A stretch of 17,583 nucleotides of DNA from a virus (IMGVR_UViG_2585427735_000005), one strand, 5' to 3'; shown: positions 2,117-12,679, counted from the first letter of the stretch. Translations and numbers: made by a program. The notes: generated by a model not told the origin, from the sequence alone.

Positions 2117-3061
2117 TCATTGATTCACCTCCTGCCTGTCGTCCGGCATTCGCTCACTACAGCTTATCCAACCATCCGGAGTTACCGGAACTTGTGGAAT
2201 GGCTGTCTGCTCTCGAACGTCATTAGGCGCTATAGGTTCTGCTGCCAACTGACTGGCATATTTGTTAATGGTAACGATAAGCTCTTGCTCAGCCTCATCC
2301 AGACAATCACCGATACCTCGCCTGTCACCGTCAAAATCATCGAAATCGGCACGAATCCTGGCAACCTTCAGGATTGCGGACAACACCTCACTAGGAATTG
2401 CCGGATAGTTGGTTGACGTTTCCGCGATTTCCCGAAAATTATTGGTTGACGAATTCTTGTTTTCCCGAAAGTTTCCGGACTGAAGCATGGCGGCGCGGCA
2501 GGCGTTCCATATTTCGGCAGCAATATCGCGCTCGCTATCGGTTAATTTGTACGTTGAAACATAGCCAGAGAGCATTTCTACGTTTTCCGGAGTTGCTTCT
2601 TCAGGCACTACCGGTGCTGGCTCACGTATTACAGGCTCGCCCATGCGTGATTCTCCCTGCGCCTCTTTCACCATGTGGTCATTGATTTGCTCCAGTCGCC
2701 GAACGTGCTCATCAGCTTCAAGCGCTCGCCGTTTCCAGATGGACAGGTCTTCACGAGCGCCCTGATATGCGTCACCGTATTCGCCGTTAAATACTGGCGC
2801 TGGCGGGGCGATGCGTCCAAGCAACTTATTTACCTCTTTCGCCATCGCGTCATATTTATCTAAATAGCGATTAGCTTCTAAGCAGACTCGGTGCATCTGA
2901 TCTGAGTTAACTCGTTTAACTGGATCTGCTTCCAATGATGCCAGTGCAATCCGTGCCAGTTCTTCCGCTTCTTCTGCTGGCAGTACAACGTTGCTACCCG
3001 GTCCGTATGTTTCGCGCCACTGCTTGATTGTCAGCAGTCGCCCTTTGGTAATAGTGATCAT
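2117..3061 (-). CDS. Hypothetical protein, 314 aa, acidic and Ala/Glu-rich
   Basis: Long ORF co-oriented with the early-left operon. Its start overlaps the stop of the upstream gene in an ATGA arrangement (3058-3061). The extreme C-terminus (PDGWISCSERMPDD) loosely resembles the start of a DUF551-type domain; weak recollection only. Confidence 0.55.
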   Translation of the reverse strand: MITITKGRLLTIKQWRETYGPGSNVVLPAEEAEELARIALASLEADPVKRVNSDQMHRVCLEANRYLDKYDAMAKEVNKLLGRIAPPAPVFNGEYGDAYQGAREDLSIWKRRALEADEHVRRLEQINDHMVKEAQGESRMGEPVIREPAPVVPEEATPENVEMLSGYVSTYKLTDSERDIAAEIWNACRAAMLQSGNFRENKNSSTNNFREIAETSTNYPAIPSEVLSAILKVARIRADFDDFDGDRRGIGDCLDEAEQELIVTINKYASQLAAEPIAPNDVREQTAIPQVPVTPDGWISCSERMPDDRQEVNQ

Positions 3062-3573
3062 GCCGCGTTTCCTTCTTTCTTATTAACAATCACACCGTCA
3101 TATATTTCATTAAGGTGCCCTCTCAACTCCATGCGCCTTAATGCAGATAACATGTAATCGCATTCAACCTGCTTATTCCCGGTAAATGGCTTATCGTCAG
3201 GATTACCCCAACAGCAATTACCCCTGGGCCATCCATGTACTTTCCGTACTCTTCCGTTAACAACGTGAAGTAATCCCCAGCCGGGAGGTAAATCCTCAAC
3301 TGAAATAATTTCCGGCTCACTAATAAAGAATCGCCAGTCGCCCATGCCAAGTGAGGGATTTTTACGGAAACGCTTTTTTCTATCTGCCAACAAGTCAGCA
3401 CGAGAACACTTCGCCTCTATCAGGCATGATGCTGAATTTCTGAATCCCATAGCATCTGGCTGTTCTCCGGTACTGGTTACAGCAACAAAGCGGTCATGAA
3501 AGCAAACCTTGAACCCGTTGCGCTTAAGGAACTTGTACGCAATCTGACAGAGTTCGTGGTGTGTTAACGCCAT
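3058..3573 (-). CDS. Putative PD-(D/E)xK-family nuclease-like protein
   Basis: 171-aa ORF with AAGGAG 6 nt upstream of the ATG at 3573. The segment ...GEQPDAMGF...SCLIEAKCSRAD has the D...(D/E)-x-K spacing of PD-(D/E)xK (restriction-endonuclease-like) active sites. Motif read by eye only. Confidence 0.45.
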   Translation of the reverse strand: MALTHHELCQIAYKFLKRNGFKVCFHDRFVAVTSTGEQPDAMGFRNSASCLIEAKCSRADLLADRKKRFRKNPSLGMGDWRFFISEPEIISVEDLPPGWGLLHVVNGRVRKVHGWPRGNCCWGNPDDKPFTGNKQVECDYMLSALRRMELRGHLNEIYDGVIVNKKEGNAA

Positions 3574-4111
3574 ATAACTCTCCTTTGATGCGAATGTCAG
3601 CGACGCGTAATGCGTGTTCTAGGTCAATCAGGTAAAGCCAACTGCCATTTTCTTTAGGTATCATGACTTGTCGCTCATCTGCATTTATCGGGTGTCCATA
3701 TCGAAGGTCGTAGCGAGTCGGTAATTGAACTTCCCGCGCTTCCAGTTCAGCAATACGCTTGCACTCATCAGAGATAACTCCCTCGTAATACTCGCGCTGC
3801 TCGTTGAGTTTTGATTTTGCTGCTTCAAGCTCAACGCGCAGCTTCCCAACCGTAAGCGCAATATCCTCGTTCTCCTGGTCGCGGCGTTTGATGTATTGCT
3901 GGTTTCTTTCCCGTTCATCCAGTAGTGCCAGCACGGTTTCTGGTCCGGTCAGAAATTTGAAGGCATTGAGCGCATCAATATCCACACCGTAATCTTTAAG
4001 TTCCTGTTCACTTAACAAATCATCATCAACTGGCAACATTAACAGGCGTTCCATTGCTGGAATTGCACGTTCCGCCACCTCACGCAGTGCCTGGTAATTA
4101 ATTTCGCTCAC
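3524..4111 (-). CDS. Ea22/Ead-like early protein, paralog 1
   Basis: 195 aa with a GTG start at 4111 preceded by GGAGG at 6-nt spacing. The N-terminus MSEINYQALREVAERA matches the conserved N-terminal signature of Ead/Ea22-like lambdoid proteins as I recall it; the centre is coiled-coil-like. The ORF runs 50 nt into the next gene. Confidence 0.55.
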   Translation of the reverse strand: MSEINYQALREVAERAIPAMERLLMLPVDDDLLSEQELKDYGVDIDALNAFKFLTGPETVLALLDERERNQQYIKRRDQENEDIALTVGKLRVELEAAKSKLNEQREYYEGVISDECKRIAELEAREVQLPTRYDLRYGHPINADERQVMIPKENGSWLYLIDLEHALRVADIRIKGELYGVNTPRTLSDCVQVP

Positions 4112-4788
4112 TGATTGCCTCCTTTGCGAAGCTGGGCAGCAAAGTCAACTAACCACTCAGTCATTTCAACCTTCCCTACCAGGTCTGAACCAGGGTGCAT
4201 ACAGCAATCACTCTGCGCCGCTTTGAAATCCTTACACTCATATTCTTGGGCCACCAGATTTTTTGCAGCTTCTATAGCAGCATCCACCCCCTGCGCCCGG
4301 ACTTCAGCCAGGAAAGCATCAGTGGTTGGCGTTTCAGGTATCTGTCTCCTCATCCGTTCTATTGCATGATTGAACCCGAAGTCTTCCGCGAGAGATACGT
4401 CATCCATATTGTCATTGTCATCCTCAATATCCCGTGATTTTGGAATTGCAGACTTTATTCCCGCATTCTCAGCAGCCAGCGCCGCGCACTTGGCCTCAAG
4501 AGCGGCAACCACTTCCTGATGGTCTTTGTACTTAACGTATGAGCCGGAGATGTCATCACCTTCGGTGTTTAGCCATGCGTCATTGCAATTCACTGCGTAG
4601 GTTCTGATGCTGATGCTCTCCCGCCCCTGACAGACGCCAGGCCAGTCAATAAAGTATCCGCAATGCCTACCCTCAGACGTGCGCGCAGGATAAATGCCGT
4701 TATGACCCGGCAAAATATATGCTACCCATTCATCTTGCGTTGCCTGTTCCGCCGCCTCGCGCAGTTCTTGATAGTCAATCTTGCTCAC
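4108..4788 (-). CDS. Ea22/Ead-like early protein, paralog 2
   Basis: The ORF track gives 4108..4821. I prefer the GTG at 4788 because it sits in the same GGAGG-N6-GTG context as paralog 1 and overlaps the upstream stop in a GTGA arrangement, giving N-terminus (M)SKIDYQELREAAEQA. The C-terminus ends ...QLRKGGNQ, like the upstream gene. Confidence 0.5.
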   Translation of the reverse strand: MSKIDYQELREAAEQATQDEWVAYILPGHNGIYPARTSEGRHCGYFIDWPGVCQGRESISIRTYAVNCNDAWLNTEGDDISGSYVKYKDHQEVVAALEAKCAALAAENAGIKSAIPKSRDIEDDNDNMDDVSLAEDFGFNHAIERMRRQIPETPTTDAFLAEVRAQGVDAAIEAAKNLVAQEYECKDFKAAQSDCCMHPGSDLVGKVEMTEWLVDFAAQLRKGGNQ

Positions 4789-5129
4789 TGGTTGCCTCCT
4801 TTGCGAATCTGTTCCGCCCATTCTTCTAGGGATTTCTCCGCATATTCACCGGACAGGCCATCAATCGGGTGTGGTTCATTAGCCAACTCTTCTTTCGCTG
4901 ACAGAATCATGCGTGTAACGTCGAAAACTTCACGTAAAGACTTATTGATAAATCCGTGATTGAAAGCCGCAGCAAGACGGCTTGCGGTATAGTTAATACC
5001 CTCGTTGCGAGCCTCAGCACGTACTTCATCGAATTTACGCACCAGATACTCAGCATTTGTTTCATTCACTTTCAGATCTCGTGGTACACATTTCCCGCGA
5101 AGAAACCCTTCCATTTCGAAAACATTCAT
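4785..5129 (-). CDS. Hypothetical protein, last gene of the yfdPQRS-like module (YfdS-like)
   Basis: About 114 aa. The ATG at 5129 overlaps the upstream stop (ATGA); the ORF track uses the ATG at 5135. The C-terminus ...EQIRKGGNQ is encoded by the recurring junction cassette. Size and position match YfdS of CPS-53; recollection only. Confidence 0.5.
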   Translation of the reverse strand: MNVFEMEGFLRGKCVPRDLKVNETNAEYLVRKFDEVRAEARNEGINYTASRLAAAFNHGFINKSLREVFDVTRMILSAKEELANEPHPIDGLSGEYAEKSLEEWAEQIRKGGNQ

Positions 5130-5662
5130 GCGCATTTGCGTAACTCCGATAACTCGTTAAAACGTTCCATAAACATCCCGTAGGCATGGCCTGGCGACAG
5201 TGGAATCACTTTGAACATCTCTGTTGCCGGGATACCTTCCAGTACAGGCCAGAAAGAGCTATCATCAAGCCCGAGATCGCGGCGTTCGGTTGCCAGCATG
5301 ATGAGATCGGCATATTTCACGGGCGTGCTCATAACCGGGGGTAACCCGTATTTCTCACGGATTACGGCGTCTATTTTTTCTTCCATCCGTTTATAGTCAG
5401 GAAGAAGGCGTTTCAGTGGAGCGGGAATATCCTGGCAATACGCTTCTGTTGCATCATGCATTAACGCTTCAAAAGCAAATTCCTGCGGCACCAGCTGGCT
5501 GCAAAGCACCGCATGTTGGGCGACACTGTAGAAGTGAGAAAGATGACCGGCAAAGCGGCAGATATTTGAAAGGGAAACCGCGATATCGTTAATCACGATG
5601 TCGTCTTTATTTATCCTGTCATAATAAAAATGCTTCCCGGAAAAAGTTTTAATAAATGACAT
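5126..5662 (-). CDS. HD-domain phosphohydrolase (YfdR-like 5'-deoxynucleotidase family)
   Basis: Contains the HD motif in ...EALMHDATEAY... with His-containing stretches upstream (FAGHLSHFYSVAQHAV). I prefer the ATG at 5662, preceded by GGAGAA, over the GTG at 5689 used by the ORF track; this gives 178 aa, the length I recall for YfdR. Confidence 0.6.
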   Translation of the reverse strand: MSFIKTFSGKHFYYDRINKDDIVINDIAVSLSNICRFAGHLSHFYSVAQHAVLCSQLVPQEFAFEALMHDATEAYCQDIPAPLKRLLPDYKRMEEKIDAVIREKYGLPPVMSTPVKYADLIMLATERRDLGLDDSSFWPVLEGIPATEMFKVIPLSPGHAYGMFMERFNELSELRKCA

Positions 5663-5789
5663 TTTGTTCTCCACGTATATGCGCTGCACCGCGCTGAGTT
5701 TGGGTAAAAGGAAGCCCTCACCATCCGGTGATTATTGAGTTAATTACGTTTCCATAAATGCCCCCGCAGGGGCATTTGCAGTAATGAAA

Positions 5790-6614
5790 TCAGGCGGTGA
5801 AAGTACCAATAAAGGTTTCTACTTTGCTGTCTTTGAATTTCTTAACAAGCAGATCACGAAATTCGTTAGCCATATCTTCCTGCACCGCTTCCAGCTGAAT
5901 AATGCGCATAACCAGTACAGGACGATCGCCAGTGATAATGCTGAGGCGTAATTTAAACGGACGTTCTTTCAGACCTTCAAACGGAACGCATTTAAATTCA
6001 AATGTCACTGGCATAATGTCTTTGGTCTTCGCTTCGACAGATTCCATCAGGGAGCGTTTGCCGCTGAAGTCATTATCTTCAAAATCAGCGGTCTGGTTTG
6101 CTTCAATCGTGATTTTACGGACTGCCGCAGCCGCTTTTGTTGCCTGAATAGCGTCACCATTAGCATCAAAGCCCACAAGGTAGTCGGCCCAGTCTTCAAT
6201 CCATTCTGCCAGTGACTTCTGGGAGTTACGCTCGCCGTTAACAGACAACAGGGCAGAGAACGGTGCTGTCTTTTTCAGTTTGAGAGTGGCGGTGTTATCT
6301 GCGTGACCTGGTTCATCAATAGTACCCAGGTTAAGTACACTGACGGCACGCATATTATCAGCATCGATAAAGCAGCGGGTGCCTTCATCTGCAAGATCTT
6401 TAGAATAACGGGTAAAGTCATCGATGCTGGCAGTGGAAAGCGCACCACGGAAACGGAAGCGATTTAAATTAAATTTTTCCAGATCATGAATGCGGAAATT
6501 CTCAGGCAATGCCACAGCATCGGCACCAATCTTACTGATAATTTCATTAACACCCTGAGCAGAAATAAGGGCATGGATTTGATTAATTGCGGTTGCGTCT
6601 AAGTTCTGAGACAT
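5790..6614 (-). CDS. DUF2303-like protein (YfdQ-like)
   Basis: 274-aa ORF sitting between the YfdP-like and YfdR-like genes, with the same length and position as YfdQ of CPS-53. Assignment is by synteny and length recollection, not by a recognised motif. Confidence 0.5.
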
Positions 6615-6679
6615 AATAAGTCCTCACTATATAAAGATATTCAGTGATGAGATAAATAATCAGTTAATTAAGAACGATA

Positions 6680-7042
6680 TTAATGACCTGCTGCGCGTAG
6701 TTTTCCGTCAGGTTCACCGGCAAGAGTCAGTAATTGTCCCTGGTCTTCCTGCAGAATAGTCAGGCGACCACCGCGATTGACATACATCGGCGTTTCGGTG
6801 GTGTCTTCTTCGGAAATTTTCCCGCGGTTAGTCGGGCGAACATATGAGAGTTTGTGTTTGATTTTCACACGGTTCTCATCAAATGGTTCGATTTCCAGGT
6901 TGAGCGAGACCTTACCTTTGGTTTTCGTATTCATCACACCGGAAGCGACTTCACTGAGAACAGCGCCGATTTTGGTTTCAAATACGCCGCCGTCCAGCTC
7001 CCCGATAAATGCCTGCACATCAGTACTGCGTTCGCTAGCCAT
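6680..7042 (-). CDS. Hypothetical protein (YfdP-like), first gene of the module
   Basis: I prefer the ATG at 7042 (MASERSTDV...), preceded by GAGGAG at about 7-nt spacing, giving 120 aa. The ORF track's start at 7060 lacks a ribosome-binding site. Confidence 0.45.
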   Translation of the reverse strand: MASERSTDVQAFIGELDGGVFETKIGAVLSEVASGVMNTKTKGKVSLNLEIEPFDENRVKIKHKLSYVRPTNRGKISEEDTTETPMYVNRGGRLTILQEDQGQLLTLAGEPDGKLRAAGH

Positions 7043-7090
7043 TTTGCTGCTCCTCATCATATCGACCCTGCAAGATCGGTTGGTTTATCC

Positions 7091-7179
7091 ACAAAACAGA
7101 GAAGAACACCTGCGGTGGCAGCCGCCAGGATGGATTGGGTTATGAGCCCGTCGGCCGGTGATGCTCTTCTCTGTTTTGT
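7091..7179. repeat. Perfect 15-bp inverted repeat (ACAAAACAGAGAAGA at 7091-7105, TCTTCTCTGTTTTGT at 7165-7179) with a 59-bp GC-rich spacer
   Basis: Read directly from the sequence. It lies in the leader just upstream (in transcription) of the YfdP-like start; the spacer holds GC-rich imperfect palindromes (CTGCGGTGGCAGCCGCCAG). Confidence 0.6.
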
Positions 7180-7180
7180 A

Positions 7181-7226
7181 AAAAGAGCGGTACCAGCCGG
7201 AAGCAAGTGTACAAACTGGTACCGCT
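7181..7226 (-). terminator. Putative intrinsic terminator for leftward transcription (tL-like)
   Basis: Perfect 11-bp stem (AGCGGTACCAG 7186-7196, CTGGTACCGCT 7216-7226) with a 19-nt loop, followed on the minus strand by CUUUUU (plus-strand A-run 7181-7184). The loop is large, so function is uncertain. Confidence 0.4.
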
Positions 7227-7670
7227 AAAGCAGTGGCTGTTGTGGTGACCGGTGCTGATCTCCGGCTTGCGGTTATTTCAGACTCTCACGGGCGTTTAAT
7301 TGCCCCGCCGAACAGCTCTTTTCCGCAATAGCTGCAATGTCTTTCGCGCATCAGCCTGCGCATTCACCACAACGCTGAGAGCACTTAGCCAGTTACGGCA
7401 CCACACTTTGTCGCGGTTCCATAAATGCCCTCATCGTTGCACCCTAGTCTCTTCCCAGGTGTCAAATCGAACCGCCACGCTGGTTAGGCGTCTTATCAGC
7501 ATCATCATTGACTTGCACATTCCGGCTACCTGGTTTGTTTGCCCGAGCAAGGAGTGGATTGTCCCCTTTAACGTCCCCAGACCGCTAACGACGCATGTGC
7601 CATACGCCGTGTTACAACCAAATTTTGTTAGTACCTTGTTTGTATGTCTGGAAAGAAAGATAAAATGAAG

Positions 7671-7709
7671 TTGCGCATTATGCAAGTGTTTTTATTGCGA
7701 GATATGCAA
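7671..7709. promoter_or_regulatory. Putative OL operator pair and pL region
   Basis: Two 15-bp palindromic sites, TTGCGCATTATGCAA (7671-7685) and TTGCGAGATATGCAA (7695-7709), 9 bp apart, share the form TTGCG-N5-TGCAA with a site in the cI-cro intergenic region. pL hexamers could not be placed confidently. Confidence 0.45.
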
Positions 7710-7722
7710 TTTGGTGGGTAAT

Positions 7723-7744
7723 GAAAAGCCACCTTCTGGTGGCT
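7723..7744 (-). terminator. Putative terminator downstream of cI
   Basis: Hairpin AGCCACC-TTCT-GGTGGCT (7727-7744) lies 22 nt past the cI stop. On the minus strand it is followed by only about 4 U, so it is a modest terminator. Confidence 0.35.
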
Positions 7745-7765
7745 AATTGATATTGAGGTAGGGGG

Positions 7766-8458
7766 TTAATTGTGTCGCTTAAGGGTTTGTGACTGACTGA
7801 TTAAGACCTTTCCAAAGACCATAAACCGATGTTCGTTTTCGCTGGTAATTCCCCATTCGCGGTAAATCTGATTATCAGAAATTACCAGCAGTTTATCAGG
7901 TATCATTTGCAGTCGTTTGACGTAAATTTTATCATCAAAACCAAATACATATATACCATCCCCATCAAACTGATTGATACTGATATCAACGAAGATGAGA
8001 TCTCCTGGCTCAATGGTTGGACACATACTGTCCCCACGAACGTTGATAACTTTAATGTGATTTGCTGGTCGTCCACCAAACATCGATACAGCATTATCAG
8101 TTCTGTATTCAATGGCATGAATCACATCAATGACATCACCGCCCTGGATAAGGCCATTTCCCGCACTGGCACTGACATCCAGCATTTCAATACGGAATAC
8201 ATCCTTCACCTGCGCAACATCCTCACTAATACTGTTTTTACATACAGTATTACTTTTGAGGTCTGAGGTAAAGAGATCAGCAATATCAACACCTAAGCTC
8301 CTGGCAATATTACTCAGGGCTTGTTCAGTGAATTGTTTCTGCTTACCTGTTTCGAGGCGCGAGATATTCGCCGCATCCACTCCTATTGCTTCAGCGAGAT
8401 CGGCGATTTTCATGTTCTTCGCCTGGCGAAGTTGTCTGACTCGATTTCCTATGTTCAT
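7766..8458 (-). CDS. cI: CI-type phage repressor (N-terminal HTH, C-terminal S24/LexA-like autopeptidase)
   Basis: 230 aa. The N-terminus has an XRE-type HTH (MKIADLAEAIGVDAANISRLETGKQ). The C-terminus has an Ala-Gly candidate cleavage site (SASAGNG), catalytic Ser in GDSMCPTI and Lys in YVKRL about 38 residues later, as in LexA/lambda CI. It is divergent from cro. Confidence 0.9.
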   Translation of the reverse strand: MNIGNRVRQLRQAKNMKIADLAEAIGVDAANISRLETGKQKQFTEQALSNIARSLGVDIADLFTSDLKSNTVCKNSISEDVAQVKDVFRIEMLDVSASAGNGLIQGGDVIDVIHAIEYRTDNAVSMFGGRPANHIKVINVRGDSMCPTIEPGDLIFVDISINQFDGDGIYVFGFDDKIYVKRLQMIPDKLLVISDNQIYREWGITSENEHRFMVFGKVLISQSQTLKRHN

Positions 8459-8555
8459 GCGTTTATTACATTTCTTTATTGCGCGTTAAGCAAATCAACT
8501 TGCGCAAAATATTTGCGTGAAATAATATGCTCATCACGCAATATGTGGAGGTTAT
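8459..8555. promoter_or_regulatory. OR / pRM / pR divergent control region
   Basis: Operator-like elements: TTGCGCGTTAAGCAA (8479-8493), the palindrome TTGCGCAA (8500-8507), and the inverted repeat TTGCGTGA (8513-8520) / TCACGCAA (8534-8541). Candidate pR: -35 TTGCGC (8500-8505), 17-bp spacer, -10 TAATAT (8523-8528). GGAGG precedes the cro ATG. A leaderless-type pRM is possible on the other strand. Confidence 0.5.
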
Positions 8556-8816: not shown

Positions 8817-9366
8817 TCATCACTGGAAAGTGGAAAAACAGCCTGAGTGGTACGTGAAAGCTGTCAGAAAAACTATCGCGGCGTTGCCGGGGGGTTACGC
8901 TGAAGCTGCTGAGTGGCTGGATGTAACAGAGAACGCATTATTCAACCGCCTTCGTGCAGATGGCGATCAGATTTTCCCGCTGGGATGGGCAATGATTTTA
9001 CAACGTGCTGGTGGAACTCACTTCATTGCTGACGCTGTGGCGCAGTCTGCAAATGGCGTCTTTGTGTCTCTTCCTGACGTCGAGGATGTGGACAACGCCG
9101 ATATTAACCAGCGTCTGCTGGAAGTCATCGAACAGATCGGGAGTTACTCAAAGCAGATTCGTTCGGCAATCGAAGATGGGGTAGTGGAACCGCATGAGAA
9201 GACAGCAATTAACGACGAACTGTATCTTTCAATTTCGAAGCTCCAGGAGCATGCAGCACTGGTCTACAAAATCTTCTGCGCTCCAGAAAAGAGTAACGCC
9301 CGCGAGTGTGCAGCTCCGGGCGTCGTGGCGTCGATTGCTTCTGGTTGTGGAGAAACTAACGCATGA
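8809..9366 (+). CDS. CII-like / YdaT-family regulatory protein (putative)
   Basis: 185 aa with a GTG start 6 nt after AGGAGG, overlapping the cro 3' end. Its position right after cro and my recollection of YdaT/CII-like proteins of Rac-type prophages suggest this call. Not verified. Confidence 0.4.
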   Translation: MGNHHWKVEKQPEWYVKAVRKTIAALPGGYAEAAEWLDVTENALFNRLRADGDQIFPLGWAMILQRAGGTHFIADAVAQSANGVFVSLPDVEDVDNADINQRLLEVIEQIGSYSKQIRSAIEDGVVEPHEKTAINDELYLSISKLQEHAALVYKIFCAPEKSNARECAAPGVVASIASGCGETNA

Positions 9367-10514
9367 ATAGTTTAACGGCAAATAACCGTTTGTCGCAACA
9401 GCTGGTGGTCAGCGTCGCTGAACACCTGTTGTTACGGCATGAATGCAGATTACCAAATCACCTGGCTGTAAGTAACCACAGAGAACTTTACCTGACTGTG
9501 GGGGGCGAGTTGTGCAGGAACTTAACCGCTGGTTTCGTGACGGAAGAGGACTTTATGTTCATGTTATTCGTTGGGAGCCAGAAACACAGCGCGTTATCTA
9601 TCTTCGCAAAGACTACCCGCATGAGTGCTTTAGTCCTTTGTGGAAATTCAGGCGTGATTTTGTTGAGTGTGAAGGACCACCAGCATATTGATTCTGCAAT
9701 TCCGGGACGTTACACTGCTCAGGCACCTTATAAAGCGGGTGCCGGGCGTGGAAACCCGAAATTCAATATAGAGCACAACCGCGCTCATGCGGTTTTTTCG
9801 TGTCATGAGCATCGTTACGCCCAAATTATGGTGGGGCGTGCAGGGCCAACTTCGGTTGGGCCGGGTTCTATGTTGACCGGTATTTCCACCCCTGTACGTC
9901 TCACCACCTATATGGTCGTGGAAAGCCTTGGTGGTGAGTTCATTGAATTCAACATAGGGGCTGTCACCATGACTACTCTCCCAACCCAATCTCACCCTGA
10001 AATCACGATTATCAATGGTCGCGTTGTCACCACATCTCTTGCAGTAGCTAATTACTTTACTAAACGGCATGAGCGGGTTTTAGATAGAATTAGAAACCTC
10101 GAATGTTCCGCTGAATTTACTGAACACAATTTTGTGTTAAGTGAATACACCGACGCATCAGGCCGCAAACTCCCTTGTTACCAAATCACCCGCGACGGTT
10201 TTGCGTTTCTTGCCATGGGCTTCACTGGTAAACGTGCTGCCCGGTTCAAAGAGGCATACATAAATGCCTTTAACCAGATGGAAAAACTGCTTTCAAAGCC
10301 ATCCACGCTGAGCGATGCCGCAGATAACGCCAGCGTGCTTTACTCCCACCTGTCGGTAATCCACAAGGTCTGGCTGCAGCAGCTTTATCCCATGTTGGCA
10401 AAAGCCGAATCCCCGCTGGCTGTAAGTCTGTATGACCGCATCAACGACGCGGCGCTACTGGCCAGTCTCATAAATTTGTCGCTGAACCCTTCAGAGGTAA
10501 GGGGGCGCAAATGA
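9363..10514 (+). CDS. Rha-family phage regulatory protein, annotated with a roughly 200-codon N-terminal extension (true start may be the ATG at 9970)
   Basis: Residues from about 205 (ITIINGRVVTTSLAVANYFTKRHERVLDRIRNL...YQITRDGFAFLAMGFTGKRAARFKEAYINAFNQME) match the Phage_pRha signature, which normally lies at the N-terminus. The ATG at 9363 is ATGA-coupled to the upstream gene, but the extension has no recognisable features. Confidence 0.6.
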   Translation: MNSLTANNRLSQQLVVSVAEHLLLRHECRLPNHLAVSNHRELYLTVGGELCRNLTAGFVTEEDFMFMLFVGSQKHSALSIFAKTTRMSALVLCGNSGVILLSVKDHQHIDSAIPGRYTAQAPYKAGAGRGNPKFNIEHNRAHAVFSCHEHRYAQIMVGRAGPTSVGPGSMLTGISTPVRLTTYMVVESLGGEFIEFNIGAVTMTTLPTQSHPEITIINGRVVTTSLAVANYFTKRHERVLDRIRNLECSAEFTEHNFVLSEYTDASGRKLPCYQITRDGFAFLAMGFTGKRAARFKEAYINAFNQMEKLLSKPSTLSDAADNASVLYSHLSVIHKVWLQQLYPMLAKAESPLAVSLYDRINDAALLASLINLSLNPSEVRGRK

Positions 10515-10735
10515 TCCGGAATATTTTCAAACGGTTTACCAATCATACTTTCCGTTGTCCTCGTCCGGGTCAGTGGTACACCACGCCTGCAGGGCATGTT
10601 CTACGTGTTAGCCTGGTTGACCGTGAATGTCAGAAGGTGATTTGTGAACCGCTGGGCCGTAATTACCGCGTCAGTATGCCGCTTATAGCCTTTCGCTCCG
10701 GAAAAAACATGAAGCATCTCGGAGGTGCTGCATGA
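10511..10735 (+). CDS. Small hypothetical protein (74 aa)
   Basis: ATGA overlaps at both ends (with the Rha stop and the O-like start) indicate translational coupling inside the operon. Basic and Cys-containing; no domain recognised. Confidence 0.5.
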   Translation: MIRNIFKRFTNHTFRCPRPGQWYTTPAGHVLRVSLVDRECQKVICEPLGRNYRVSMPLIAFRSGKNMKHLGGAA

Positions 10736-11550
10736 GTATGGAGTTGATGGTTAAAGCGATGAAAATTCGAGTGGGAAATCCATTGCGAAAACTGGTTCTG
10801 ATTAAGCTGGCTGATAATGCCAGCGATCAGGGTGAGTGCTGGCCCAGCTACCAGCATATTGCTGACCAGTGCGAGATTAGCAAACGTTCTGTGATGAATC
10901 ATATTGCGGCCCTTTGTGAGTCCGGGCTGGTAAAAAAAGTCACCCGGAAAGGTGAAAAAGGTAACTCAAGTAATATCTATCTCCTTCATCTTGATGGTGC
11001 AGGAGATTCACTAGGGGGTAGTGCAAATAATTCACTATCTGGTGCAGCAAATTCACCAGGTAGTGCAGGAGTTGCACCAGGGGGTAGTGCAGGAGATTCA
11101 CCCAGAACCAGTCACTCTTTTGAACCAGTCAAAGAACCAGTCAATGAACCAATAGCTGTTGGTGCATCTGCTGATGAGTCTGTGCGAGTTCGTTCAAACC
11201 GACCGGAATACTCTCCGGAGTTTGAGCAGGCATGGCTGGCCTATCCAAAACGTGCTGGTGGCAATTCAAAATCTGCAGCCTTCAAAGCCTGGAAAGCCCG
11301 TTTGAATGAGGGGGTAAACCCCGAAACCATGCTGGAAGGTGTGAAACGCTACGCGGGCTGGGTATCTGCGATGGGTAACAGCGGCACACAATTTGTGAAA
11401 CAGGCTGTCACGTTCTTTGGCCCGGATCGTCATTTCGAAGAATCCTGGGAAGTTCCTGCGGTATCTGCAGTCAGACGCGAGGACCCGTACTTCAAAGCCA
11501 GTTACGACAACGTGGACTACAGCCAGATCCCGGAAGGATTCAGGGGGTGA
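10732..11550 (+). CDS. Replication initiator (lambda O-like: N-terminal HTH, Gly/Ser/Ala-rich linker encoded by iteron-like repeats)
   Basis: The N-terminus (LRKLVLIKLADNASDQGECWPSYQHIADQCEISKRSVMNHIAALCESGLVKK) resembles the HTH N-terminal domain of phage replication initiators. The central low-complexity linker is encoded by the direct DNA repeats below, as in lambda O where ori-lambda lies inside the gene. Confidence 0.6.
   Translation: MSMELMVKAMKIRVGNPLRKLVLIKLADNASDQGECWPSYQHIADQCEISKRSVMNHIAALCESGLVKKVTRKGEKGNSSNIYLLHLDGAGDSLGGSANNSLSGAANSPGSAGVAPGGSAGDSPRTSHSFEPVKEPVNEPIAVGASADESVRVRSNRPEYSPEFEQAWLAYPKRAGGNSKSAAFKAWKARLNEGVNPETMLEGVKRYAGWVSAMGNSGTQFVKQAVTFFGPDRHFEESWEVPAVSAVRREDPYFKASYDNVDYSQIPEGFRG
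10996..11153. repeat. Iteron-like direct repeats inside the O-like gene (candidate replication origin)
   Basis: Five copies of a roughly 17-20 bp unit, GGT(AGT)GCA(G/A)(G/C)A(G/A)(A/T)T(T/G)CAC(T/C), at 10996-11012, 11017-11036, 11041-11057, 11059-11078 and 11083-11102. These are followed by four copies of GAACCA(G/A)T at 11105-11114, 11122-11131, 11134-11143 and 11146-11153. Confidence 0.6.
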
Positions 11551-11552
11551 TC

Positions 11553-12026
11553 ATGAGTCTTTTGAATGAAGTTCAGAAATTCATTGAAGCCCATCCGGGC
11601 TGTACTTCCGGAGACATTGCGGATGCTTTTGCAGGTTACTCACGGCAGAGCGTACTGCAGTCAGCAAGCAAGTTACGTCAGAGTGGGCGTGTGGCTCACC
11701 GTTGTGAAGGGGATACACGCAGACATTTCCCGCGTCTGAGTGAGAGAGCGCAGGAGCCGGAACCACAACCAGTTCGTGAAACCAGACCTGTGCGCAATTT
11801 CTATGTCGGCACTAACGATCCCCGGGTGATTTTGTGCCTGACCCGCCAGGCTGAAGAACTGGAGTCAAGAGGCTTATACCGTCGTGCTGCAACCGTGTGG
11901 ATGGCGGCATTCCAGCCAGAACGAAACAATTTTCTGGCACGTCGTGAGCGGTGCTTACGGAAAAGCAGCAAGCGCGCTGCATCGGGTGAAGAGTGGTATC
12001 TGTCAGGGAATTACGTGGGGGCTTAA
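11553..12026 (+). CDS. Hypothetical protein with a possible PerC-like C-terminal region
   Basis: I prefer the ATG at 11553, preceded by AGGGGG, over the GTG at 11547. The C-terminal LESRGLYRRAATVWMAAF...RRERCLRK resembles the conserved core of PerC/Pch-type activators as I recall it. Low certainty. Confidence 0.4.
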   Translation: MSLLNEVQKFIEAHPGCTSGDIADAFAGYSRQSVLQSASKLRQSGRVAHRCEGDTRRHFPRLSERAQEPEPQPVRETRPVRNFYVGTNDPRVILCLTRQAEELESRGLYRRAATVWMAAFQPERNNFLARRERCLRKSSKRAASGEEWYLSGNYVGA

Positions 12027-12679
12027 TGAGTAATAAATATTGCCGGGCGCTGGTGGAACTGCGGAACAAACCAGCCCATGAACTGAAGGACGTGGGCGAT
12101 CAGTGGCGCACGCCGGATAATATTTTCTGGGGAATTAACACCCTGTTTGGTCCGTTTGTTCTGGATCTGTTCACTGACGGTGATAACGCCAAATGTGCCG
12201 CGTATTACACGGCGGAAGACAACGCGCTGGCGCATGACTGGTCAGAACGTCTTGCGGAGCTTAAAGGTGCTGCCTTTGGCAATCCCCCGTACAGCCGCGC
12301 CAGTCAGCATGAGGGGCAATACATCACCGGCATGCGTTACATCATGAAGCATGCCAGTGCCATGCGTGATAAAGGCGGGCGCTATGTTTTCCTGATCAAA
12401 GCTGCCACCAGCGAAGTGTGGTGGCCGGAAGATGCAGATCATATTGCTTTTATTCGCGGGCGTATTGGTTTTGAACTGCCTGCCTGGTTTATCCCGAAAG
12501 ACGAAAAGCAGGTGCCAACAGGTGCTTTCTTCGCTGGTGCTATTGCTGTTTTCGACAAGACCTGGAAGGGACCGGCAATCAGCTACATCGGGCGCGATGA
12601 ACTTGAGGCATGTGGTGAGGCATTTCTGGCGCAGGTTCGCCAGCAGGCGGAAAAACTGGTCAGGGAGATGGTGGCATGA
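12026..12679 (+). CDS. Phage-type DNA N6-adenine methyltransferase (Dam-like, orphan)
   Basis: The ATG at 12026 overlaps the upstream stop (TAATG). The catalytic NPPY motif is present (AFGNPPYSRA), with a DWRTPDNIF N-terminal region typical of phage N6-adenine methyltransferases. No partner restriction gene is seen. Confidence 0.8.
   Translation: MSNKYCRALVELRNKPAHELKDVGDQWRTPDNIFWGINTLFGPFVLDLFTDGDNAKCAAYYTAEDNALAHDWSERLAELKGAAFGNPPYSRASQHEGQYITGMRYIMKHASAMRDKGGRYVFLIKAATSEVWWPEDADHIAFIRGRIGFELPAWFIPKDEKQVPTGAFFAGAIAVFDKTWKGPAISYIGRDELEACGEAFLAQVRQQAEKLVREMVA

Follow-up and report, generated by a model that had tools for sequence, protein, structure and literature searches.

The 17,583-nt window of viral DNA analyzed here (IMGVR_UViG_2585427735_000005) contains on its minus strand, at positions 4785-7060 of the whole window, four successive open reading frames (ORFs) of the same orientation. 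They are preceded by a structured leader RNA at 7083-7186. An earlier note, based on the sequence alone, had described the four genes as a module resembling yfdPQRS of prophage CPS-53, and ORF calling located them exactly where it had placed them. The first gene, yfdP (6680-7042), encodes 120 amino acids (aa) from an ATG at 7042 with the Shine-Dalgarno sequence GAGGAG 7 nt 5' of this start; the longest ORF, 6680-7060, has 126 aa. It is followed by yfdQ (5790-6614; 274 aa), by yfdR (5126-5662; 178 aa from the ATG at 5662, or 187 aa for the longest ORF, 5126-5689) and by a fourth gene (4785-5135), whose start overlaps the yfdR stop by 10 nt, as in K-12. The sizes of 120, 274, 178 and 114 aa given in the note were accurate for the first three genes, whereas the fourth encodes 116 aa when counted from the start homologous to that of K-12 YfdS. 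In BLASTP comparisons with the CPS-53 proteins of E. coli K-12 MG1655, YfdP showed 99.2% identity over 120 aa, YfdQ 98.5% over 274 aa and YfdR 97.2% over 178 aa. Megablast detected the 2276-bp block in 3173 of the 5426 complete E. coli genomes (58%), and the matches, mostly 95-99% identical, are annotated as yfdP, yfdQ and yfdR in about 3000 E. coli records. The block is therefore very common and already named and described, and its identity is essentially certain. Thousands of genomes already carry its annotation and work on K-12 has dealt with it, so that its detection in the window adds little by itself; the most useful corrections concern its composite nature, the mosaic structure of the fourth gene and the existing literature on DnaA.

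The family assignments agree with these identities. YfdP matches phrog_204 (E = 1.3e-50), and PF27127 is carried by its homologues, including a 99%-identical cluster representative. YfdQ matches PF10065 (DUF2303) with E = 1.3e-91 and 307 bits (cut-off 26.6), and its residues 7-272 span model positions 2-269 of 269. In YfdR, the motif LMHDATEAY, which had been read as an HD motif, corresponds to residues 67-75, and the metal ligands of the H...HD...D set are H50, H69-D70 and D119. These ligands are kept in at least 90 of the 94 homologues collected and align with those of PDB 2gz4 (Atu1052, the only solved relative; E = 1e-13). The searches thus gave significant similarity to YfdP, YfdQ and YfdR and revealed an HD protein with its metal-binding residues, two points on which the note had made its assignment depend. 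Judged by this alignment, YfdR is a member of the HD-domain metal-dependent phosphohydrolase superfamily whose catalytic residues appear intact. It shares the H...HD...D signature with E. coli YfbR and Atu1052. However, YfdR scored below the cut-offs of the YfbR-type models, both in Pfam (PF12917, 24.2 bits versus 25.9) and in NCBIfam (PRK03826, 19.8 versus 122), which indicates that it belongs to an HD family separate from YfbR.

The fourth gene was the part of the yfdPQRS assignment that did not hold. It is 88% identical to K-12 YfdS in BLASTP, but only in residues 1-42, where it also matches phrog_583. Residues 36-116 match phrog_614 and phrog_368, two tail families that are also found in the adjacent Ead/Ea22-like gene downstream. 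A Pfam scan of the protein gave no match, neither to DUF551 nor to PF13935 (Ead_Ea22), whereas K-12 YfdS ends in DUF551 (22.2 bits). The slot after yfdR was surveyed in 78 viral contigs with P, Q and R nearly identical to those of the window. The majority harbor canonical YfdS and about eight the 116-aa form of the window; others contain 195-aa and 165-aa proteins sharing the YfdS head, or unrelated genes, whose products are a 292-aa protein and a hydrophobic protein of 296 aa that is probably located in the membrane. The 165-aa variant consists of the head, an AKCAAL coiled-coil segment typical of Ea22 proteins and the same tail as the window gene. The window gene hence has the appearance of a shortened, deletion-derived member of the Ea22 mosaic family. 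These alignments identify the fourth gene as a probable mosaic of a YfdS head and an Ea22-type tail, not a YfdS orthologue, and its position is a swap-prone, recombination-prone slot of the Ea22 mosaic family. Two tandem Ead/Ea22-like genes, at 4108-4821 and 3524-4111 on the minus strand, come after it. The C-terminal sequence ...LRKGGNQ is common to the first of them and the fourth gene and points to recent recombination in the mosaic family.

The coherence of the block was analyzed in eight annotated phages of different hosts, 80 loci from species-representative bacterial genomes (a few species being present twice), 80 Pseudomonas-type viral contigs and four Xanthomonas CP2-type contigs. Linkage was scored when a YfdP homologue was located on the same strand, not more than 200 nt upstream of YfdQ. 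By this measure YfdP directly precedes YfdQ in 8/8 annotated phages, 74/77 genome loci, 67/76 Pseudomonas-type contigs and 4/4 CP2-type contigs, in total 153 of 165 diverse loci. A YfdR-family gene downstream was found in 2/7, 54/74 (49 adjacent), 31/66 (none adjacent) and 0/3 of the respective groups. The pair occurs in temperate phages of Enterobacterales, Vibrio, Pseudomonas, Xanthomonas and Psychrobacter. Thus, YfdP and YfdQ form an obligate pair and the truly conserved unit, with YfdR as a facultative neighbor. The view of the four genes as one module proved too simple: tight linkage was seen only for YfdP and YfdQ, and YfdR and the fourth gene are separable, so that the block is a composite of the P-Q pair, an often-present YfdR and the recombination-prone fourth slot. 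A classification of yfdQ as a plasmid leading-region gene was rejected, since YfdQ occurs in just 23 plasmid records, of which 20 are predicted to be non-mobilizable and several exceed 3.6 Mb, the size of a chromosome.

From the integrase to Q, the window covers part of an intact lambdoid prophage of the CPS-53/SfV/ST64B type. In its closest genomic match, E. coli TOE17, the prophage adjoins mlrA. A CI-type repressor gene (7766-8458, minus strand; Peptidase_S24, E = 6e-19; HTH_3, E = 1e-10) is located upstream of the block, and no plausible further gene was detected between cI and yfdP. An operator-like site with a TTGC-N7-GCAA core lies to the left of cI at 7691-7709, directly past the cI terminator (7727-7744), and forms a 19-nt direct repeat with a second copy at 8475-8493 between cI and cro. 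From their sequence and position the two repeats are probably the CI operators OL and OR, with the former marking the probable region of the early leftward promoter PL. This arrangement of repeats and terminator places the four genes first in a CI-controlled early-left (PL) operon. In 101 of 172 related loci, too, an upstream S24 repressor gene has the same orientation, which shows that the early-left position of the pair recurs widely. The same P-Q-R order after the repressor, with the same leader RNA, is present in SfV (orf31 region), ST64B (sb37-sb35), LLS (gp39-gp37), Stx2c and mEp460. In ST64B and LLS the P and Q proteins are just about 57-61% identical to those of the window, and the downstream genes differ. 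K-12 CPS-53 (KplE1) has the order yfdP-yfdQ-yfdR-yfdS-yfdT and shares both the order of the block and the 10-nt overlap at the yfdR stop. However, it is only a remnant of such a phage: the leader RNA has been lost along with cI, cro and the left end of the right operon, of which yfdO, yfdN and yfdM are left over; yfdT is replaced in the window by the two Ead/Ea22-like genes.

The earlier note regarded the function of the genes as not established, and thereby overlooked published work on DnaA and oriC in K-12. Noguchi and Katayama (PMC4776307) identified yfdQ-yfdR-yfdS-yfdT as a multicopy suppressor of over-initiation in hda-185 and showed that suppression required yfdQ, yfdR and yfdS or yfdT. 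Purified YfdR bound domain I of DnaA in a manner dependent on Phe46 and competed moderately with DiaA and DnaB, and extracts inhibited oriC replication in vitro. The authors proposed an ancestral role in phage growth analogous to that of lambda P (PMC4776307). DnaA binding and inhibition of initiation have therefore been shown, in multicopy and in vitro, for K-12 proteins that are 97-99% identical to those of the window. For the window prophage the timing and the role during induction can be inferred as follows. In the lysogen, yfdP, yfdQ, yfdR and the fourth gene would be silent under CI. After induction or infection the early-left genes would be made first. YfdR would attach to the Phe46 surface in domain I of DnaA, to which DiaA and DnaB also bind, and would then, jointly with YfdQ and the fourth protein, throttle new initiations at the host oriC, a host-takeover step comparable in its outcome to the binding of DnaA by lambda P. 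Host takeover through a YfdR-DnaA block of oriC initiation is regarded as the best-supported mechanism, with a probability of roughly 45%. Lambda P and SirA of B. subtilis are inhibitors of host initiation that bind DnaA, and the outcome proposed for YfdR is the same, a block of oriC initiation by a small DnaA-binding protein. The Phe46/Phe49 surface of domain I is required by SirA as well as by YfdR, whereas lambda P binds domain III. YfdR is related to neither of them in sequence or fold; its fold is that of an enzyme, and in vivo it depends on partner genes.

Several points weigh against this mechanism. The effect on DnaA was observed only with overexpression, for which the authors allow an artefact, and deletion of the genes in K-12 had no phenotype (PMC4776307). 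In the same study yfdP was dispensable for suppression of hda-185, although YfdP is the tightest partner of YfdQ. Since the fourth gene of the window is neither YfdS nor YfdT, the genetic requirement defined in K-12 may not be satisfied here. No fold or structure match assigns a biochemical activity to YfdP or YfdQ. Finally, the YfdR family has members in 337 phage records, among them phages of Bacillus, Caulobacter and Rhizobium, and a host range as wide as this points to enzymatic activity as the conserved role and not to a specific DnaA contact.

According to the latter explanation, the selected function of YfdR would be the hydrolysis of a nucleotide phosphoester (in deoxynucleoside monophosphates or in a signalling or modified nucleotide), which would alter nucleotide pools or remove a defence signal, an idea close to that of the note, and DnaA binding would be incidental. 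Apart from the distribution over distant hosts, this is in agreement with the conservation of the catalytic residues in nearly all members and with the annotations of the family: YfdR matches phrog_318 ("deoxyribonucleoside 5' monophosphate phosphatase") with E = 6e-111 and is labelled 5'-deoxynucleotidase in RefSeq. It is also in line with the observation that a YfdR-like gene still adjoins the leader RNA at loci without yfdPQ (see below), and with the presence of a gene for an Rv2179c-like 3'-5' exoribonuclease (PF16473) in 35 loci (among them L159 and L086). This gene lies some 1 kb downstream of yfdQ, and often close to the HD gene, in phages of Enterobacterales as well as in Pseudomonas-type phages; it is absent from the window. 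However, the scores below the YfbR cut-offs do not favor a 5'-deoxynucleotidase of the YfbR type, and PADLOC models matched none of the seven proteins tested (0 families), thus no known defence system. An enzymatic function of this kind is the main alternative to host takeover and is considered possible, if less likely.

Deletion of CPS-53, yfdQ or yfdS in K-12 is reported to increase the sensitivity to H2O2 or acid (Wang 2010, in the form cited in PMC4776307), and the block is kept in 58% of the complete E. coli genomes. Both observations would suit moron-like genes that raise the stress tolerance of the host during dormancy. However, the genes of the window are positioned behind a CI-controlled promoter region, a leader of about 600 nt and a terminator-like hairpin and should therefore be off in the lysogen, and the P-Q pair is also present in phage genomes of many hosts. 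The stress data from K-12 are not comparable with an intact prophage, because the immunity region is deleted in K-12. A benefit to the lysogen is thus highly improbable as the selected function.

The AlphaFold2 model of YfdP comprises a helix (9-39), a three-strand meander (44-87) and an unstructured C-terminal tail with a predicted local distance difference test score below 50, yet this tail is the most conserved part of the protein. A profile search with YfdQ among 1.84 billion representatives yielded 1739 clusters at 50% identity. Nearly all of the best 150 representatives have 250-300 aa, and none of these 150 carries a domain fusion that would give a functional clue. The only YfdQ entry found by sequence in the PDB, 9o7m ("YfdQ Protein"), contains 36 chains of a 274-aa homologue (E = 3e-44), which suggests a large YfdQ homo-oligomer. 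By eye, and not by direct alignment, the aligned sequence of this entry is nearly equal to ORF37 of Xanthomonas phage CP2. Foldseek comparisons of YfdQ and YfdP with the PDB gave no match at E <= 0.001; 9o7m itself was missing among the fold-search matches, although the library reaches releases to 2026-04-08. No publication describing the solved assembly was found in the searchable literature. The 36 chains, the single-domain architecture and nearly uniform size of the best YfdQ matches and the conserved unstructured tail of YfdP are hints that YfdP and YfdQ may form a large oligomer acting on DNA replication or recombination, which has less support than the role of YfdR at DnaA.

Between PL and yfdP the window contains a leader RNA with a three-way junction (7083-7186, minus strand), the one item here that may be new and that may be of more consequence than the gene block. 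About 125 nt just 5' of yfdP are conserved with 78-92% DNA identity in more than 30 loci of other genera, in which the YfdQ proteins are just 55-68% identical. An alignment of 24-26 distinct sequences revealed a 22-bp closing helix (P1), a helix with an invariant apical hairpin (P2) and a hairpin of variable length (P3), and RNAalifold agrees with this structure. Over its 35 base pairs, 95.2% of cells are paired, compared to 39-60% in controls in which the pairing partners were slid by 1-3 columns. Compensatory (two-sided) changes were observed in 14 pairs versus 2-7 in the slid controls, and none of 500 shuffles (0/500) attained the observed values. A covariance model, R1, scored the window element with 99.7 bits in the sense (minus) direction and with 32 bits in antisense, which fits an RNA read in the direction of the operon. 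Among the 80 genome loci, R1 gave 30 strong matches, every one of them just upstream of yfdP, and the RNA is present in 62 phage records.

The RNA is framed by two further hairpins. T1 (7179-7226, minus strand), directly before it, consists of a 13-bp stem followed by CUUUUUA; its sequence varies across genera, the hairpin and the T-run being retained. It resembles, as far as its sequence tells, an intrinsic terminator that early-left transcription would have to pass. A small hairpin, H4 (7063-7078, minus strand), was found in the minimum free energy fold between the leader RNA and the yfdP ribosome-binding site and has a counterpart in the same place in other genera (CGGCGG...CCGCC). The 188-nt stretch 7043-7230 folds with -71.2 kcal/mol (z = -4.78). 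The remaining leader, from PL to T1, aligns poorly across genera and contains only two short conserved blocks, at 7342-7385 and 7239-7270 on the minus strand, which are 90-100% conserved. The first of these, GUGCUCUCAGCG...UGCGCAGGCUGAUGCGCG, has a boxA-like run followed by a small hairpin and recalls a nut site; no N-like gene was seen.

Other explanations of the conserved leader were rejected. A 49-aa ORF with a TTG start (7057-7206, minus strand) overlaps the RNA, matches phrog_33599 and is annotated as "hypothetical protein" in several phages. However, conservation as a small protein is ruled out by the length of the T-run (5-8) and by inserts in P3 (2-25 nt, non-multiples of 3), which shift the frame between genera. 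The conserved core also contains no start codon, and the substitutions are compensatory across helices. The ORF is probably a spurious call over the RNA. Identity with HK022 put, with an Rfam family or with a tRNA was likewise excluded by R1, blastn, cmscan and ARAGORN. R1 had no match in K-12 CPS-53 or in the HK022 immunity region, and no second, putR-like copy in the window; blastn against the HK022 immunity region gave similarity to cI only. Rfam gave no match to the leader RNA at the gathering score and none at E <= 1 for the stretch 6950-7800. The leader RNA and HK022 put share some features, both being cis-acting structured RNAs in the early-left leader of an N-less lambdoid phage with two adjacent hairpins that are not separated by a spacer (P2 and P3 in the leader RNA). 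However, put is a V-shaped RNA of about 70 nt that begins at the transcription start of PL and is present a second time after PR. The leader RNA, in contrast, comprises 104-130 nt with a 22-bp closing helix, is located about 500 nt from the operator-like site after the terminator-like hairpin and occurs as a single copy. To explain how early terminators are read through in lambdoid phages lacking N and put, a put-like RNA has been put forward as a speculation for the N-less members of this group (PMC12315714), and the leader RNA sits in the right place of the operon in this respect.

The genes that follow the leader RNA were surveyed by scanning viral contigs for a 16-nt core, which gave 68 matches with at least 700 nt of downstream sequence. 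yfdP is the next gene in 44 of them, and the full element (92-116 bits) is present in 18 of the other 24. These 18 elements are followed by RdgC in 10 cases (loci L295, L303, L334, L302, L288, L309, L261, L286, L266 and L300), directly by a yfdR-like gene in six and by something else in two. The RdgC assignment is based on PF04381 (E = 1e-113), and a YfdR-like HD gene comes next in seven of the 10 RdgC loci. Since the RNA heads the operon before yfdP, rdgC or yfdR, it belongs to the operon leader and is not specific for yfdPQ. The first slot can be taken by P-Q or, alternatively, by RdgC, with the YfdR-like gene as the more constant follower.

RdgC modulates RecA and binds DNA as a ring. The shared slot raises the alternative that YfdP-YfdQ is a DNA-binding accessory of recombination or repair, interchangeable with RdgC, rather than an inhibitor of replication. 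In distant phages the P-Q pair is found beside genes for SSB, RecT, Erf and exonuclease, and a large multi-chain assembly such as 9o7m would be compatible with this function. However, slot sharing is weak evidence in mosaic phages. P-Q-R-type genes, whose function is described as not known, are common in early-left operons of phages with and without a Rec module (PMC12315714). Because the cluster also occurs where the Rec module is complete, a hidden recombinase was judged unlikely in that study. In the window, too, a hidden recombination module (Red-beta/RecT/Erf, exonuclease, Gam/Abc) was ruled out by the lack of any Pfam, PHROG, NCBIfam or fold match. An accessory role of the pair in recombination or repair is seen as unlikely; the alternation of P-Q and RdgC nevertheless offers a starting point for experiments on two orphan families that comprise about 1700 clusters.

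The invariant apical hairpin of P2 (7137-7150, minus strand), CGGGCUCAUAACCC, is identical in 14/14 nt to positions 28-41 of E. coli initiator tRNA-fMet, that is, to the anticodon stem-loop with three G-C pairs and the loop CUCAUAA containing the CAU anticodon. The three G-C pairs are a mark of initiator tRNAs. The tRNA-fMet sequence used for the comparison was found with 100% identity in 5426/5426 genomes, annotated as tRNA-Met, and 0.01 matches with up to one mismatch would be expected by chance in the window. The similarity is restricted to this anticodon-arm core of 14 nt: the leader RNA has no acceptor, D or T arms, and ARAGORN detected 0 tRNA genes in the window. In other genera C32-U33-C34-A35-U36 is kept in all aligned sequences but one (Scandinavium), and positions 37-38 vary. 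Exactly this stem-loop of tRNA-fMet is the cleavage site of two VapC toxins, one from Salmonella LT2 and one encoded on the virulence plasmid of Shigella flexneri (PMC4705866). As Shigella and Salmonella are hosts of this phage group, the analogy suggests that the P2 hairpin could be a decoy for, or a sensor of, anticodon nucleases that target the initiator tRNA (VapC/MvpT, for example). An interaction with the P site of the 30S subunit, with IF3 or with methionyl-tRNA synthetase (MetRS), or a mere YUNR kissing loop, may explain the hairpin equally well. A mimic of the initiator-tRNA anticodon arm is unexpected, and the hosts carry nucleases directed against this tRNA. Very tentatively, and with a low probability assigned to the whole, the leader RNA would represent a new class of cis-acting phage RNA of N-less SfV/ST64B-type early-left operons. 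In this view the copied tRNA arm would have a function, be it as a VapC/MvpT decoy or sensor, by contact with the 30S P site, with IF3 or with MetRS, or within an antitermination device made of RNA alone. As a separate part of the reading, YfdP and YfdQ would build a large assembly that is functionally interchangeable with RdgC.

The remaining genes of the window complete the picture of the lambdoid prophage. It begins with an integrase (59-1345) and an excisionase (1379-1633), followed by a DUF4222 protein and by two proteins without an assigned function (2117-3061 and 3058-3573). Past the Ea22-like genes, the window order continues with the four-gene block, a stretch of about 700 bp without credible genes, cI, cro, a CII-like gene and Rha/Ash. 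The right part contains genes for an O-like initiator, PerC/YfdN, Dam methylase, RusA, KilA-N, DUF968 and the Q antiterminator. In the replication region (10732-12679, plus strand) the O-like initiator (10732-11550; HTH_36 / DnaD_N) is followed by PerC/YfdN and Dam, and neither a helicase nor a helicase loader was detected in this region. An "O-only" type of lambdoid replication has been mentioned as poorly understood (PMC12315714). Release of DnaB from DnaA by YfdR could, as a speculation, matter for such phages. Within the Rha/Ash ORF (9363-10514), Rfam matches at gathering score were obtained on the plus strand for isrK (9723-9799, 61.6 bits) and C4 antisense RNA (9824-9911, 82.4 bits), corresponding to a P1/P7-type antisense immunity element in the right operon.

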